A stretch of 14,301 bases of DNA from Escherichia coli (GTDB taxonomy: Bacteria; Pseudomonadota; Gammaproteobacteria; Enterobacterales; Enterobacteriaceae). This document shows, in pieces, positions 2,357 to 13,600 of this stretch. Numbering within the stretch: the stretch's first letter is position 1; each line of letters opens with the position of its first letter. Both the position numbers and the translations under genes were made by a program. A model generated the notes under the pieces. The model saw only the letters and a list, made by a program, of their open reading frames with translations. It was not told the DNA's origin and made no database searches. The DNA lies in assembly GCF_003334405.1 (NCBI RefSeq), contig NZ_QOWM01000030.1, one strand, 5' to 3'.

Positions 2357-2971
2357 TTAACCATTGATGGTGAAGATAAGTTTGTTTGTACCAGTGCTGC
2401 CATTATCTGCCTTGCATTGCGTACTGGCTTCTTCAGTAGTGACTTTTCCATCACTGTGAGCAGTACTGTTCAGGGTAATGCCGTTAGTTAAACCAGTTTT
2501 ACTGATCCGTGTGGCAATCTGGATACAGGCATCCTGTGGGACTTTATCATAGGTAACGGTAAAACCGTTGTTGAACCCTGATGTTGAAGCCGGGGCAACA
2601 GTTACAGCACCGCCCCATGCGTTATAGAGCGTTGCTGTACCAGATGTTTTGTCGCCCTGTACTGTCATCCCAGAGGGAACGGCCCCCATCTGAATGAGGG
2701 CACCTGTCATTTTGGCACTGCTGGTAAATGTATATCCATCGCTACCTTTTAGCAGGCTCTGGGCACTTGTGATAATTGTTTGTATATTTGCGGTTTCAGT
2801 TGCCACATTGGTTCTTGTACGTAACGCATACAAACTACCCAGAACAACGACTATAACAAAAAGAACAACGAGCGCTATTGTTCCCTGCTCCAAAATTCCC
2901 CATCCTTTATCATGAGGCTCATTCTTCTTATTATTTCCAGTTAAAGTGGCATTAATATTTTCTACTAACAT
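2357..2971 (-). CDS. pilS: Type IVb major prepilin with long leader peptide
   Basis: 23-aa hydrophilic leader ending DKG, then W-G-I-L-E (Glu at +5) and a hydrophobic helix TIALVVLFVIVVVLGSLYAL; two C-terminal Cys (QDACIQ...STQCKADNG) typical of a pilin disulfide loop. GAGGA RBS 5 nt upstream. Confidence 0.8.
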   Translation of the reverse strand: MLVENINATLTGNNKKNEPHDKGWGILEQGTIALVVLFVIVVVLGSLYALRTRTNVATETANIQTIITSAQSLLKGSDGYTFTSSAKMTGALIQMGAVPSGMTVQGDKTSGTATLYNAWGGAVTVAPASTSGFNNGFTVTYDKVPQDACIQIATRISKTGLTNGITLNSTAHSDGKVTTEEASTQCKADNGSTGTNKLIFTING

Positions 2972-2988
2972 AAATATCCTCGTTTTGT

Positions 2989-4086
2989 TTAAAAGTTACC
3001 CATGCTGTTGTCACTAATAGACTGAATATCCATAATGGCAAAAACCAGTAACATGAGAGACATGACAAGAAATATCAGCATAATTAAACGAATCACGTTT
3101 GCCCGTTTCTTTACACGTTGAAGTGTTTGACTAAGCCATCGTTGACCATAATTGCTGATTAGCTCTGTTGCGCCATCTCCCTGTAATAAAGACAGGAAGT
3201 TGGCTGCTTCCCTGGATGGGAACTGATAACCGCACTGACGCAAAGCCAGTCCAAGATGATCCCCCTGGCGGACGCGGTAAATAATGCTGTCAAGACGCGT
3301 GCTTAACCATGGTGATGCAAACTCCTGAAGAATGTTTAGTGAGTTGAGCGTCGTCATTTTGGCTTTCAGAAGTGCAGCCATATTCAGGAGAAATGTTGCT
3401 CCCTGTATATCCTGATAAATACTCCATGGCATTATCTTGTCGGCAAAAGTACGAACACTGTCAGGGCTTTTCCAGTTTGGCAGAGACCATGATATTAAAC
3501 CTGTGATCACTGCAAAAAGAACGGCACATATAGCGCCGTAATTATCGACAAAAACAGATAATCCATAAAGAAAACCAAGAGCACCACTCCATGAATCGGG
3601 GGAACTTATTTTGCTCAGTTCAGGTATTAGCTCTGTATTCAGAACATATAATGTCCCCGTCATCATGATTAACAATCCCACCGGATAAATAGCCATTTGC
3701 CATATAGCCTGATGGATTTGTTCTTTTGCATCTGTAAGAGTGGTGGCGAATTGCAGTGCATCCACAATTGAACCACTTCTTATCCCGGCGCTGATTACTG
3801 CGGCCTCTTCCTGAGGAACCCATAAACTAAGAGTATATTCCAGAGAGTTTTCGCCACTGTTTTCACGAAGAGACTCAATGCAGTCTGTGGCCAGTTCAGC
3901 AAAGGGATGCCATTTTCGTCCAAAGTCTGTCCAGGCATCCCGCATCTGTTCCAGTGCGGTCTTTAATGGCTGTTTATTTTCCAGCAGAAAACGCAGGGCT
4001 TCGTAAAACTGCACCCTGTAGGGGGCGCTGAACGTTTTTCTGACAATGAAACGCCTCAGCCGTTGACTGAAATTCATTTCACGCAT
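2989..4086 (-). CDS. pilR: Inner-membrane platform protein of type IV pilus/T2SS (GspF/PilC family)
   Basis: 365-aa polytopic membrane protein located directly downstream of the GspE-like ATPase, as in type IV pilus operons. Family assignment rests on position, size and hydropathy rather than a sharp motif. Confidence 0.75.
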   Translation of the reverse strand: MREMNFSQRLRRFIVRKTFSAPYRVQFYEALRFLLENKQPLKTALEQMRDAWTDFGRKWHPFAELATDCIESLRENSGENSLEYTLSLWVPQEEAAVISAGIRSGSIVDALQFATTLTDAKEQIHQAIWQMAIYPVGLLIMMTGTLYVLNTELIPELSKISSPDSWSGALGFLYGLSVFVDNYGAICAVLFAVITGLISWSLPNWKSPDSVRTFADKIMPWSIYQDIQGATFLLNMAALLKAKMTTLNSLNILQEFASPWLSTRLDSIIYRVRQGDHLGLALRQCGYQFPSREAANFLSLLQGDGATELISNYGQRWLSQTLQRVKKRANVIRLIMLIFLVMSLMLLVFAIMDIQSISDNSMGNF

Positions 4087-10590: not shown

Positions 10591-10623
10591 AACGGAGACT
10601 CCGTGTTCGTATATACGTGTTTG

Positions 10624-11214
10624 TTAATTGGTGTGAGGCGGCTGGAGAGGACGAATGACGACTGTCATTCCGTCCGAATGCAAATGCGGGAGAGACCACT
10701 GAAATAAGAGATATACAAAAGGAATTGATAATCTTTCATACAGACTTGTTTTCCGTGGGCATGTAATAACAGAGAAATTCAAACCATAAGATTCCAGTCT
10801 CTTTATAAGTTTATTTATTCTTGCAGGAGTAAAGAGATGTGAATGCATAACAATGGTTTCATCATTATTAATTGCTTTTGATATCAGAGAAAGTAACACA
10901 TCCCAGTGTTTCCTCATTGACTCCGGGCAACGTGTATCGGCATAGGGGCTAAGATGTATGCTTGATTCTTTACTGCCTTTTTTTTTCGTAAAGAATGTGA
11001 AGTTGTATTTAGATACAGACCTTACGATAAGAAGTACGCATCTGAAAAGTAGTGGGGAAAAGCAAATAATAACCACTATACAGAAATATAATATATAAGA
11101 TAGTGATATGTGGTCAGTGTATAGATAACGGAAGTATTGCCACGGGGTAGTGATGTACAGGCAAAAAGTACACCAAAGTAACCATAGATATAATGGTACG
11201 TTATTATTTTTCAT
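10624..11214 (-). CDS. pilK: Hypothetical membrane protein (two N-terminal TM helices plus soluble domain), possibly PilK-like
   Basis: 196-aa ORF immediately upstream of pilL on the same strand; its ATG overlaps the stop of the preceding ORF (ATGA at 11211-11214). Strongly AT-rich compared with the flanking pil genes. The pilK name is inferred only from position and size. Confidence 0.45.
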   Translation of the reverse strand: MKNNNVPLYLWLLWCTFCLYITTPWQYFRYLYTDHISLSYILYFCIVVIICFSPLLFRCVLLIVRSVSKYNFTFFTKKKGSKESSIHLSPYADTRCPESMRKHWDVLLSLISKAINNDETIVMHSHLFTPARINKLIKRLESYGLNFSVITCPRKTSLYERLSIPFVYLLFQWSLPHLHSDGMTVVIRPLQPPHTN

Positions 11215-11507
11215 ATTAGTTGACTTTTAATACTGTTTTCTATCACCACATTTTTATGTGTCTCATTTGGCACTTCGTACTGTTGGAAATATTGTTGGCG
11301 GCGGATGCGTGTCTGTTCACTGCTTTCTATTAACACCGCCATGGCGATTGCAAAGTATATGCAAATCAGGAAAATCCAGAACGCGTTTGGTATCTTCCAA
11401 AAAAGTGTGGACAGTTTGTTATGTGGTGAAACTAAAATCGGAGAAAGGATTCCACAGACAATCACAATAGCGATGGTTAATTTAACTAGAAAGAACATGG
11501 TAAACAT
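11211..11507 (-). CDS. pilJ: Hypothetical small membrane protein (two predicted TM helices), possibly PilJ-like
   Basis: I prefer the ATG at 11507 (98 aa, MFTMFFLVKLTIAIVIVCGI...), which has GGAG 7 nt upstream; the track start at 11564 is a TTG with no RBS. AT-rich. Translationally coupled to the downstream pilK-like ORF. Confidence 0.4.
   Translation of the reverse strand: MFTMFFLVKLTIAIVIVCGILSPILVSPHNKLSTLFWKIPNAFWIFLICIYFAIAMAVLIESSEQTRIRRQQYFQQYEVPNETHKNVVIENSIKSQLI
11453..11500. repeat. 48-bp direct repeat, copy A (inside the 5' coding region of the pilJ-like ORF)
   Basis: cacagacaatcacaatagcgatggttaatttaactagaaagaacatgg matches copy B at 11595-11642 at 44 of 48 positions, offset 142 bp. 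Confidence 0.8.
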
Positions 11508-11594
11508 CGTTAATCTCCATGATAAAAGGGAGAGAGGTAATAAAGAAAATAAAGATGGCAACAAACGGCTAAATTAAAATCGTTAAAAGGTGTA

Positions 11595-11642
11595 CACAGA
11601 CAATCGCAATCGCGATGGTTAATTTAACTAAAAAGAACACGG
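11595..11642. repeat. 48-bp direct repeat, copy B (intergenic, upstream of the pilJ-like ORF)
   Basis: cacagacaatcgcaatcgcgatggttaatttaactaaaaagaacacgg; similarity to copy A extends weakly a further ~12 bp to the left. On the minus strand it would encode a degenerate copy of the pilJ-like N-terminal helix (VFFLVKLTIAIAIVCV) without the ATG. Confidence 0.8.
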
Positions 11643-11682
11643 CCCCCACCCGTTTTGACGAGGTCTTTTGTTTTTGTTGTGT

Positions 11683-11937
11683 TTACGACAGCCAGTCCTG
11701 TAGATGCTGATGGCGGGAGCTGCTGCCCTTGTGCCAGCGGCAGTGGCTGCCGGGAGCACGCTCCAGTCGGAACAGAAATCGGTTGTCGCGTAGTACCACC
11801 ACGATACAGTTATCCGGCGTGCAGAAACGTCGGGCAAGCTCATCGGGGTCTGTCGGTGTTTTCGTTGAAAACAGCCTGCGTTTGCAGTGTGCGTCGACGA
11901 CCAGTATTTGCAGTCGTCCGGGATGTTGCTGTGGCAT
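11683..11937 (-). CDS. Hypothetical small protein (84 aa), Cys/His-containing, GC-rich; possibly PilI-like
   Basis: Internal ATG at 11937 is preceded by GGAAGGAG with a 6-nt spacer, a much better start than the track ATG at 11982. The ORF is GC-rich, unlike the adjacent AT-rich block. No recognisable domain. Confidence 0.4.
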   Translation of the reverse strand: MPQQHPGRLQILVVDAHCKRRLFSTKTPTDPDELARRFCTPDNCIVVVLRDNRFLFRLERAPGSHCRWHKGSSSRHQHLQDWLS

Positions 11938-12108
11938 CAAAGACTCCTTCCGGAACGGGAAAAGAAGCAGCTGTACCGTCATAACTGCACGTACCGGTTG
12001 CGAAAAAACGGCACAAGCGAGTAGTGACAGAAAGAATGTCGGAAACGGCAGGAAGGGCGGTACAGGCTGCGAAGACTGGAAACGGGGTATGCCGGGGATT
12101 ACACATCC

Positions 12109-12792
12109 TCAGTGTAATGTGATAGTCGTCTGTTCCTGTGTTGCACCCCAGACATCTTCTGGCAGGCTGGGCAGCCCGATAAATAGGGTGTGAAAGAGGG
12201 TTTCTCTGCGTTCGATCCCGAATTGATGTTCGTATCCTCTCACCACCTGAAATCCTTCGTCGGAGAATATTAACTCTGCCGTTTCCAGAAGCTGCATAGT
12301 TTTGCGGTGTAGTGGAGTGATCAGCTGCAACGTAACTGGTGCCCTCATATCGCCTGTCGGTAGAAAACACTCTTCGGTGCGACTTAGTTGTAGCAGATGG
12401 CGTTTCCCGGAACAGGCCCGTTCAATGGATTCATTGAACACCCTCTCAGGCCATGGGCAGACATAAGTGCGCCAGCCTGCTTTCTGTAATTTACCCAGCG
12501 CAGCCCGAAAACGAAACAACGGACATTCCCCGACAGTGGCAGAGCTGAGAAAGAGCGTATTCAGCGTTCCGATGATGGGAATATTGCGATCTTTTTCGGT
12601 CAATGCTTTTAACGCCATGATTTCGCCAGGGAGACTACGGAACTCAGGATGTCTGCTGGCACCAGAAAGCCATTCAAGCAGGTAATGCCGTAATCCGGTT
12701 TCACTGGTTATATTGTGGTTTTCCTGTGCCGTTTTCAGGGCATTCAGTGCACACCAGAGCAACTGGCGCACGGGATGTTCTGTCGTGGTCAT
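12109..12792 (-). CDS. Hypothetical protein (227 aa), possibly a transfer-region regulatory protein (TraC-like)
   Basis: ATG at 12792 with AGGA 7 nt upstream; lies directly downstream of the NusG-paralog gene and its terminator. I recognise no motif; the TraC-like suggestion is based only on remembered IncI1 gene order. Confidence 0.5.
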   Translation of the reverse strand: MTTTEHPVRQLLWCALNALKTAQENHNITSETGLRHYLLEWLSGASRHPEFRSLPGEIMALKALTEKDRNIPIIGTLNTLFLSSATVGECPLFRFRAALGKLQKAGWRTYVCPWPERVFNESIERACSGKRHLLQLSRTEECFLPTGDMRAPVTLQLITPLHRKTMQLLETAELIFSDEGFQVVRGYEHQFGIERRETLFHTLFIGLPSLPEDVWGATQEQTTITLH

Positions 12793-13010
12793 GCGAATGT
12801 CCTACTGTGAGATGAAAAGAAGACCGGTATCCGTTCTCTCCGCCACACGTGATGGCACGGGCCGGCCTTTGATAAAACGAATCAATACTCTGGGGTGAAG
12901 CCTTTTATTTCTTTCGCCATTAAGAAATACACAGTTCCATCAAAAGACAGGGGGAGTCCATGGTGGGGATGGCTCCGTGCAGGCTTCACTCCAGAATATT
13001 CTCTTGAATT

Positions 13011-13045: not shown

Positions 13046-13600
13046 CTATGGGATGTTTACAAGGCGCTCCATAAAGCCGTGATGTTCGGCATTTGATACC
13101 AGTTCCAGGAGCAGGGATATCCTCGACTCAGGCTGGAGAGTATTTTCCATTCTGAGGAGATACTGATATTGTGCTTTTGTCAGCCATATGCTGGAAGCCG
13201 CATTCAGCTCTTCCCTGGCTCCCGGATTTAGCACAGGGTCCGGGTAAATCTTCATTAATCCATCAACAATATCTTTATTGATGGGTTTTATTTCACCGCC
13301 AAACTTCACGAAATCAATGAAGGCGCTATGTCGACGTAATGCCGATACTGGTTGAATGTCAAAATTAGCCAGAATAAAAAAGTACCCAGGAAAAATAGCG
13401 AATATTCTTTCACGGTAACAGCACCTGGAGTCTGCCCGTCTTATCTTTCTTGTTATTAATGGAGTCCATGGTACGACGTTTTGCTCATTCAGCCATGAGA
13501 ATAAAGATTCTCTGTTTTTGCCGGCTGTATTATATTGCGCAAGATACCAGTTCCGGTTATTCAGGTGTTCTATATTCACGAAGTTCAACGCTCCGCGCAA
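13046..13600 (-). CDS. NusG/RfaH-family transcription antiterminator paralog (TraB/ActX-like)
   Basis: Recognisable similarity to the RfaH N-terminal domain: NWYLAQY (compare RfaH SWYLLYCK), FPGYFFILANFD (compare FPNYLFVEFD), FVKFGGEIKPI (compare FVRFGASPAIVP). The start is uncertain: the track start at 13600 is a TTG, and a GTG at 13579 is an alternative. Confidence 0.75.
   Translation of the reverse strand: MRGALNFVNIEHLNNRNWYLAQYNTAGKNRESLFSWLNEQNVVPWTPLITRKIRRADSRCCYRERIFAIFPGYFFILANFDIQPVSALRRHSAFIDFVKFGGEIKPINKDIVDGLMKIYPDPVLNPGAREELNAASSIWLTKAQYQYLLRMENTLQPESRISLLLELVSNAEHHGFMERLVNIP

Follow-up and report, generated by a model that had tools for sequence, protein, structure and literature searches.

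A Cys/His-rich reading frame behind a conserved leader in Escherichia coli is very probably pilI, first gene of an IncI1-complex thin-pilus operon

Results

A small open reading frame (ORF) rich in Cys and His on an Escherichia coli contig (NZ_QOWM01000030.1, assembly GCF_003334405.1) is very probably pilI, which opens the type IVb thin-pilus (pil) operon of an IncI1-complex conjugative plasmid. The ORF lies on the minus strand of a 14,301-nucleotide stretch of that contig, here called the window. It had been picked out from the letters of the window by an earlier reading (the original prediction), which took it for a possible metal-binding or small regulatory protein preceded by an untranslated gap. 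The product matches Pfam PF10623 "Plasmid conjugative transfer protein PilI" (E = 1.2e-31, 108.6 bits; residues 8-83 on model positions 2-77 of 77). When a 701-bp query that takes in the ORF was run against plasmid records, 1,373 matched, most of them from conjugative plasmids of Escherichia and Salmonella with MPF_I typing. Their annotation calls the ORF "PilI type IV pilus biogenesis protein" and its upstream neighbour "conjugal transfer protein TraC". RefSeq WP_001136187.1 differs from the window PilI by a single substitution, L45I (99% identical). The annotated order in relatives is TraA, NusG-family TraB, TraC, PilI, two small hypotheticals (pilJ, pilK), PilL, PilM and PilN, and the minus strand of the window reads traB, traC, leader, pilI, pilJ, pilK, pilL (a 355-aa lipoprotein) and onward. 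pilI is a named, catalogued gene, which the original prediction missed, and the finding, while genuine, is ordinary; with the gene catalogued and dispensable, finding it again adds nothing new.

The observation of a small Cys/His-rich ORF was nevertheless correct, with two small corrections. The 84-aa ORF, its ATG at 11937 and the 6-nt spacing to the ribosome-binding site (RBS) are all present, the ATG being internal to a full minus-strand ORF of 11982..11683. The encoded protein has a mass of 9.9 kDa, an isoelectric point of 9.9 and a grand average of hydropathy of -0.72, and its sequence holds no signal peptide, membrane segment or hydrophobic N-terminus. Four Cys (18, 39, 44 and 66) and six His (5, 17, 65, 69, 76 and 78) were found as described, every listed position being exact and H5 being the sixth His, left off the original list. 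Together they make up 10/84 residues against 3.2% in 14 neighbouring genes (binomial P = 3.5e-4, uncorrected). The G+C (GC) content reaches 0.58 in the ORF and 0.54 in the gap, against 0.38 in pilJ and 0.36 in pilK. The gap upstream exists, although it measures 171 bp rather than 170 from the traC stop codon (12109..12111) to the pilI ATG. Two long overlapping ORFs also exist, one on the plus strand (11729..12193) and one (11840..12370) that had been called antisense but is on the same strand as pilI in another frame.

Seven distinct pilI alleles, whose coding sequences (CDS) range in DNA identity from 99% to about 66%, were compared using the Nei-Gojobori ratios of nonsynonymous to synonymous change, as rates (dN/dS) and as proportions (pN/pS); loci and proteins of relatives are numbered with the prefixes L and P. 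Divergent pairs gave a dN/dS of 0.13-0.30 in the pilI frame. The pN/pS of this frame is 0.33 and that of four other frames 1.1-1.8; the antisense register frame, at 0.36, is an expected mimic of the pilI frame and contains a stop. The AGGAG of the RBS is invariant in 8/8 aligned leaders, including a locus with only 75% DNA identity, and the ATG is invariant in all of them. These comparisons show that pilI is a genuine protein-coding gene, held by purifying selection and preceded by a strong RBS that is itself conserved. The original prediction had named poor conservation or a disrupted frame in close relatives as what would count against the ORF; instead the ORF is conserved with its frame intact, at a dN/dS of about 0.2. 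As genes, both of the long overlapping ORFs were rejected, with stops or frameshifts in L003, L005, L006, L008 and L011 and a pN/pS of at least 1, and their earlier description as artefacts holds.

A start at an in-frame ATG further upstream, which would give a 99-aa product, was also rejected. L003 has ACG in place of this ATG, and among relatives the frame from one ATG to the other is broken by a T-run that varies by +/-1 nt, so the 84-aa start is correct. Remote PilI homologs begin at the position equivalent to it. Start annotation is inconsistent across database records, some of which give N-terminally extended PilI products of 99-147 aa, and several of the database singletons P0054, P0058 and P0060-P0063 are frameshifted versions of the same gene.

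A word-indexed search returned 63 PilI proteins, all of them close or fragments, each carrying PF10623 or being a fragment of such a protein, and an exhaustive profile search of 1.84 billion representatives returned just 33. Four remote full-length members were retrieved at 24-34% identity, of which the three placed on contigs (P0066, P0070 and P0074) are each followed immediately by genes for a TcpQ-domain PilL, PilM, a secretin, PilO and a T2SSE ATPase. One remote pilI is carried by a Klebsiella IncFII-RepA plasmid, where the upstream gene is divergently oriented and a NusG-like gene is nearby. Foldseek against AFDB brought in more PF10623 proteins, from Erwinia, Acidithiobacillus, Paraburkholderia and Shewanella. 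All ten family-invariant residues (M1, C18, D30, N43, V48, E59, R60, P62, G63 and W68) are found in the window PilI, which has the family profile of a small soluble protein (about 70-100 aa) with the core C18, D30, N43, E59-R60-x-P62-G63 and W68. With each of the three located remote members heading a pilL-containing cluster, the place of PilI at the front of R64-type type IVb pilus operons is conserved, down to 24% identity.

Across the same proteins, the Cys/His cluster is not a conserved feature of the PilI family. In seven intact I-complex alleles C18, C39, C44, H5, H65 and H76 are invariant, and H17R, C66N/Y, H69R and H78Y are variable (C66Y coming from an additional allele, P0023). The L005 allele (60% identical) has lost H5, H65, C66, H69 and H78 and has Cys in place of H76. 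In the family as a whole C18 is the only invariant Cys or His: C39 is replaced by Q and C44 by W, A or G, no His is conserved, C66 becomes N, Y or S, and H65 gives way to A and has no counterpart in remote members. PilI contains no CxxC, CxxH or HxxxH motif, and its only close Cys pair is C39-x4-C44. AlphaFold2 predicts a five-stranded sheet with helices (predicted local distance difference test 80.7, predicted template modelling score 0.70; strands E9-15, E20-25, E43-50, E53-60 and E68-71, helices H31-37 and H79-83). A Foldseek search of this model against the PDB gave no match at E <= 0.001 and matched no zinc ribbon; the best small PDB fold match, a weak one, is the phage antitoxin Dmd, with a template modelling (TM) score of about 0.65 on the target. 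A zinc ribbon was rejected for PilI, as there are no knuckle pairs, the ligands are substituted across the family and the fold finds no zinc-ribbon match. The earlier idea of a zinc ribbon or metal cluster as the defining property of the protein falls on the same points, and the structure prediction suggested as its check yielded a sheet with helices. On the predicted topology, C18, C39, C44 and H65 would all fall in loops or turns on one end of the sheet.

Ahead of pilI, the homology of every relative to the window sets in abruptly at 12101 and runs through pilI, whether traC, traD, trcD or a 194-aa ORF lies upstream. The Jukes-Cantor divergence of the leader, 0.064-0.084 (0.40 for L005), is 3-5 times lower than pilI dS, 0.28-0.37 (1.75 for L005), so the 164 bp are constrained. 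The non-coding leader and pilI form one conserved module and move together. A search for σ70 promoters (-35/-10 hexamers, 16-18 nt spacing) found none in 11400-12400 on either strand, where 0.7 would be expected in shuffles, and no intrinsic terminator was found on the gene strand within the gap. The proposal that the gap is a promoter or leader for the pilus genes is therefore borne out as to a constrained leader that moves with pilI, but not as to a σ70 consensus promoter. A 7-bp AT-rich hairpin (ATTACAC-TGAGGAT-GTGTAAT; 12100-12120, minus strand) overlaps the traC stop and adjoins the 12101 boundary. It is not a typical terminator because it has no T-run, and the terminator and promoter scan flagged nothing there. 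In the IncK/B/O-like loci L006-L012, the pilI leader is preceded by genes such as one for a DUF7446 (PF24233) protein of 79-92 aa and the 194-aa ORF. This ORF is similar at its 3' end to the ends of both traD and trcD, a likeness that suggests an interchangeable 'D' gene family at the site.

The gap is the site at which related plasmids carry traD or trcD, a point that the original prediction missed. R64-type plasmids have traD between traC and pilI, and ColIb-P9-type plasmids such as pEK204 (L002) have 714 extra bp there with the 183-aa gene trcD. The traD-less layout has been published for pESBL, pEC_Bactec and some Salmonella Typhimurium plasmids, so that the traD, trcD and 'neither' states are all documented. 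In pEK204 the first 108 bp of the leader are present twice, flanking trcD (2907-3014 and 3621-3728 in gene orientation; window counterpart 11994-12101), with 100/108 positions identical between copies, and the copy ahead of trcD runs on into a diverged version of the remaining leader. The window leader is like copy 1 at its 5' end and like copy 2 at its 3' end (106/108, 102/108), the differences being sorted to opposite ends. The window leader is thus a copy 1/copy 2 hybrid, and trcD was lost by recombination between the repeats, as a 714-bp deletion.

Within the leader, the arms of a long-range inverted repeat (12070..12056 and 11980..11967; Table 1) pair in the minimum-free-energy, centroid and consensus folds, with z = -2.6. 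All arm pairs are invariant in 7 sequences (covariation term +1.09), so that covariation is uninformative either way, and Rfam gave no match to the leader at E <= 1. The predicted helix thus draws no support as a structured RNA leader from covariation or from Rfam. TraB, encoded two genes upstream of pilI, matches RfaH models (E = 1.1e-10) at 41.7 bits, far under the RfaH cut-off of 144.5. As TraB is RfaH-like, an ops-like reading of GACGGTACAGCTG in the leader was examined. The non-template strand does not match the ops consensus GGCGGTAGnnTG, its best match being GACGGTACAGCT with 6/10 specified positions; the closer resemblance, GGCGGTAC, is on the template strand. No second copy of the leader or of the ops-like motif was found at the heads of other tra, trb or nik operons in the complete 92-kb plasmid NZ_CP016520.1, and the motif was not found upstream of remote pilI genes. 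An ops-like TraB site is unsupported on each of these counts.

The region is a sharp compositional mosaic. The GC content is 0.36-0.38 in pilJ and pilK (10600-11600), 0.50-0.58 in traC and pilI (11600-12800) and about 0.50 in pilL. In L006-L012 the AT-rich pilJ/pilK segment is replaced by other genes, of 159-231 aa, and looks like an exchangeable module. A 72-nt direct repeat (11429-11500 and 11571-11642; 85% identity, 142-bp spacing) duplicates the pilJ 5' end within the pilI-pilJ spacer, and its upstream copy would encode a truncated, GTG-started 24-codon copy of the PilJ N-terminal hydrophobic segment. The R64-type loci L003 and L004 have a single copy of this repeat.

Table 1. Positions of pilI, its leader and neighbouring features in the window
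Feature	Position	Strand	Description
TraB gene	13046-13600	minus	RfaH/NusG paralog
traC	12109..12792	minus	annotated conjugal transfer protein TraC; essential positive regulator of transfer genes; adjoins the pilI leader upstream
Conserved 164-bp leader	11938..12101	minus	candidate activator-dependent promoter and/or 5' untranslated region (UTR) of the pil operon
5' arm GCAGCCTGTACCGCC of long-range inverted repeat	12056..12070	minus	inside the leader; pairs with 11967-11980
Upstream in-frame ATG	11980..11982	minus	would give a 99-aa product; rejected as start
3' arm GACGGTACAGCTGC of inverted repeat	11967..11980	minus	unique exact match in the window; kept in all leaders including L005; weakly resembles the RfaH ops element (non-template strand)
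Shine-Dalgarno GGAAGGAG	11944..11951	minus	read off the sequence; 6 nt before the ATG at 11937
pilI CDS	11683..11937	minus	84 aa + stop; Pfam PF10623 match, annotation in IncI plasmids, dN/dS
pilJ-like small membrane-protein gene	11211..11516	minus	hypothetical in L001 and L002; GC 0.38; downstream of pilI

Discussion

Our results place a constrained leader and a small conserved gene at the head of the thin-pilus operon and suggest, tentatively, how the two may work. PilI, small and basic, would stay in the cytoplasm in an accessory role, where it would bind another protein or a nucleic acid and so modulate pilus production, rather than being a structural or catalytic part of the pilus machine. 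Transposon-insertion sequencing (Tn-seq) of the near-identical plasmid pESBL, with transfer on surfaces, found pilI dispensable for both maintenance and transfer, scoring PilI at 0.95 as non-essential and at 0.05 as required for transfer, with TraC scored at 0.88 as required. The IncI2 plasmid TP114 and the pil operon of Salmonella Typhi both lack pilI, pilJ and pilK and still form functional pili. R64 pilI mutants are reported to go on making thin pili. The title of Yoshida et al. (1999) begins 'Twelve pil genes are required...', and twelve required genes out of the 14 from pilI to pilV would fit pilI and pilJ as a dispensable pair. The Cys/His cluster would be lineage-specific, forming at most a local structural metal or redox site (C18, C39, C44 and H65) and not the function of the family. 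The leader would give TraB/TraC-dependent expression of the pil operon instead of acting as a constitutive σ70 promoter; the pil and tra genes are reported to depend on TraC and on the RfaH/NusG-like TraB, which has been cited as a PrfaH/RfaH homolog required for R64 transfer. Taken jointly, an accessory modulator PilI, a lineage-specific Cys/His cluster and a TraB/TraC-dependent leader form a possible account of how the locus works, one that we put forward with little confidence. A more elaborate version is decidedly unlikely. Here PilI would be a small basic regulator or inhibitor of Dmd-like fold with a lineage-specific Cys3His metal or redox site, exerting feedback on the production of the thin pilus, and the leader a portable expression module by which the RfaH-like TraB, together with TraC, turns on any gene behind it. 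The second leader copy ahead of trcD is consistent with such a portable leader.

Several points weigh against this account. Annotation gives PilI no biochemical activity. NCBIfam matched no model to PilI, TraC, PilJ or PilK, PADLOC (defence and anti-defence) and PHROGs (phage) gave no match for PilI, and a sequence search of the PDB found no solved relative. The leader may be no more than a 5' UTR, transcribed by read-through from traC. P0066, at 34% identity, still has C18, C39 and C44, so this subfamily may hold a metal site.

Other explanations of the protein differ in what they take PilI to be. It is doubtful that I-complex PilI is a small metal-binding protein (Zn, or Fe/redox) whose Cys3His site of C18, C39, C44 and H65 is needed for its regulatory or structural role. 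All four residues are invariant in the seven intact I-complex alleles and lie, by inferred topology, at one end of the predicted sheet; the three Cys also persist in P0066 and in the L005 allele, where the exchange of H76 for Cys is a ligand-type swap, and Cys and His are enriched in the protein. However, C39, C44, H65 and C66 are all substituted family-wide, leaving C18 as the one invariant position, there is no CxxC or HxxxH motif and no match to a zinc-ribbon or other metalloprotein fold, and AlphaFold2 folds PilI confidently as an ordinary sheet that has no need of metal. The resemblance to Dmd could alternatively make PilI a Dmd/AcrIF9-like small inhibitor that neutralises a toxin, a defence protein or some other factor of the host or recipient and does not act on the pilus. 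This is very unlikely, given Foldseek E values of at least 0.66 at 6-9% identity, a simple sheet-plus-helix fold common to many proteins, the PADLOC and PHROG negatives, and the fixed position of pilI at the head of the pil operon, outside the leading region where plasmid anti-defence genes cluster. Least credible is that the ORF yields no functional protein and the region counts solely as DNA or RNA. The dispensability of pilI in Tn-seq and the rare frameshifted singletons in databases would fit such a view, but the frame-specific dN/dS of about 0.2, the invariant RBS and start, homologs that keep their operon position at 24-34% protein identity and a confident predicted fold all oppose it.

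For the leader, an alternative is a loading and anti-termination site for the RfaH-like TraB at the ops-like GACGGTACAGCTG on the non-template strand, from which RNA polymerase would read through the pil operon. The similarity of TraB to RfaH models and its citation as an RfaH homolog needed for R64 transfer speak for it, as does the CGGTA core, which all leaders, L005 among them, conserve along with its surroundings. The second leader copy, too, has a ATGACGGT block ahead of trcD, in diverged form, and a gap without a σ70 consensus promoter is compatible with read-through control. We nonetheless consider this mechanism unlikely: only 6/10 ops positions agree and the C3:G8 hairpin pair of ops is absent, TraB scores well below the RfaH cut-off, neither leader nor motif recurs at the other transfer operon heads of the 92-kb plasmid, and the motif is absent from those remote pilI loci that have a NusG-like gene close by.

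Genes for extended-spectrum β-lactamases (ESBL) and other resistance genes are carried to a large extent by IncI1 plasmids, whose transfer in liquid and in the gut is driven by the thin pilus. For a gene already catalogued, our analysis is modestly useful in three respects. The 84-aa start is the correct one, whereas some records, including that of pESBL, use longer starts. The Cys/His cluster is not a feature of the PilI family. Leader and pilI make up one conserved module, and the plasmid type without traD or trcD arose by recombination between duplicated leaders. The leader also offers a defined target for mapping the activation of the pil operon by TraB and TraC.

The name PilI is shared with proteins that are unrelated to the one described here. 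The minor pilin PilI of Neisseria and the CheW-like chemotaxis coupling protein PilI of Pseudomonas aeruginosa share no more with it than the name and a connection with type IV pili; the window PilI is without a pilin class-III signal, hydrophobic N-terminal helix or CheW domain, and Pfam gives PF10623 alone. Phage T4/RB69 Dmd and the anti-CRISPR AcrIF9, both small inhibitors that bind proteins, resemble PilI in fold only, with non-significant Foldseek E values and another genomic context. The leader can be compared with the ops leaders of RfaH and the ops-like leaders of IncX PrfaH. They are alike in having a conserved promoter-proximal leader, a long conjugation or pilus operon and an RfaH/NusG paralog encoded by the plasmid itself, here TraB; the window leader differs in departing from the ops consensus and in not recurring at other operon heads. 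The closest counterparts are the PilI proteins of R64 and ColIb-P9. These are the same gene, with 84 aa, the same RBS and a full-length PF10623, between the tra regulatory genes and pilJ/K/L. R64 and ColIb-P9 carry traD or trcD between traC and pilI, whereas the window plasmid carries neither. In this it is like pESBL-EA11, the IncI1 plasmid of E. coli O104:H4, in which the annotation of 'PilI' (O3K_25732) uses the upstream 99-aa (300-nt) start that comparison across relatives shows to be unconserved, and which has the same traD-less layout of traC, leader and pilI as the window.
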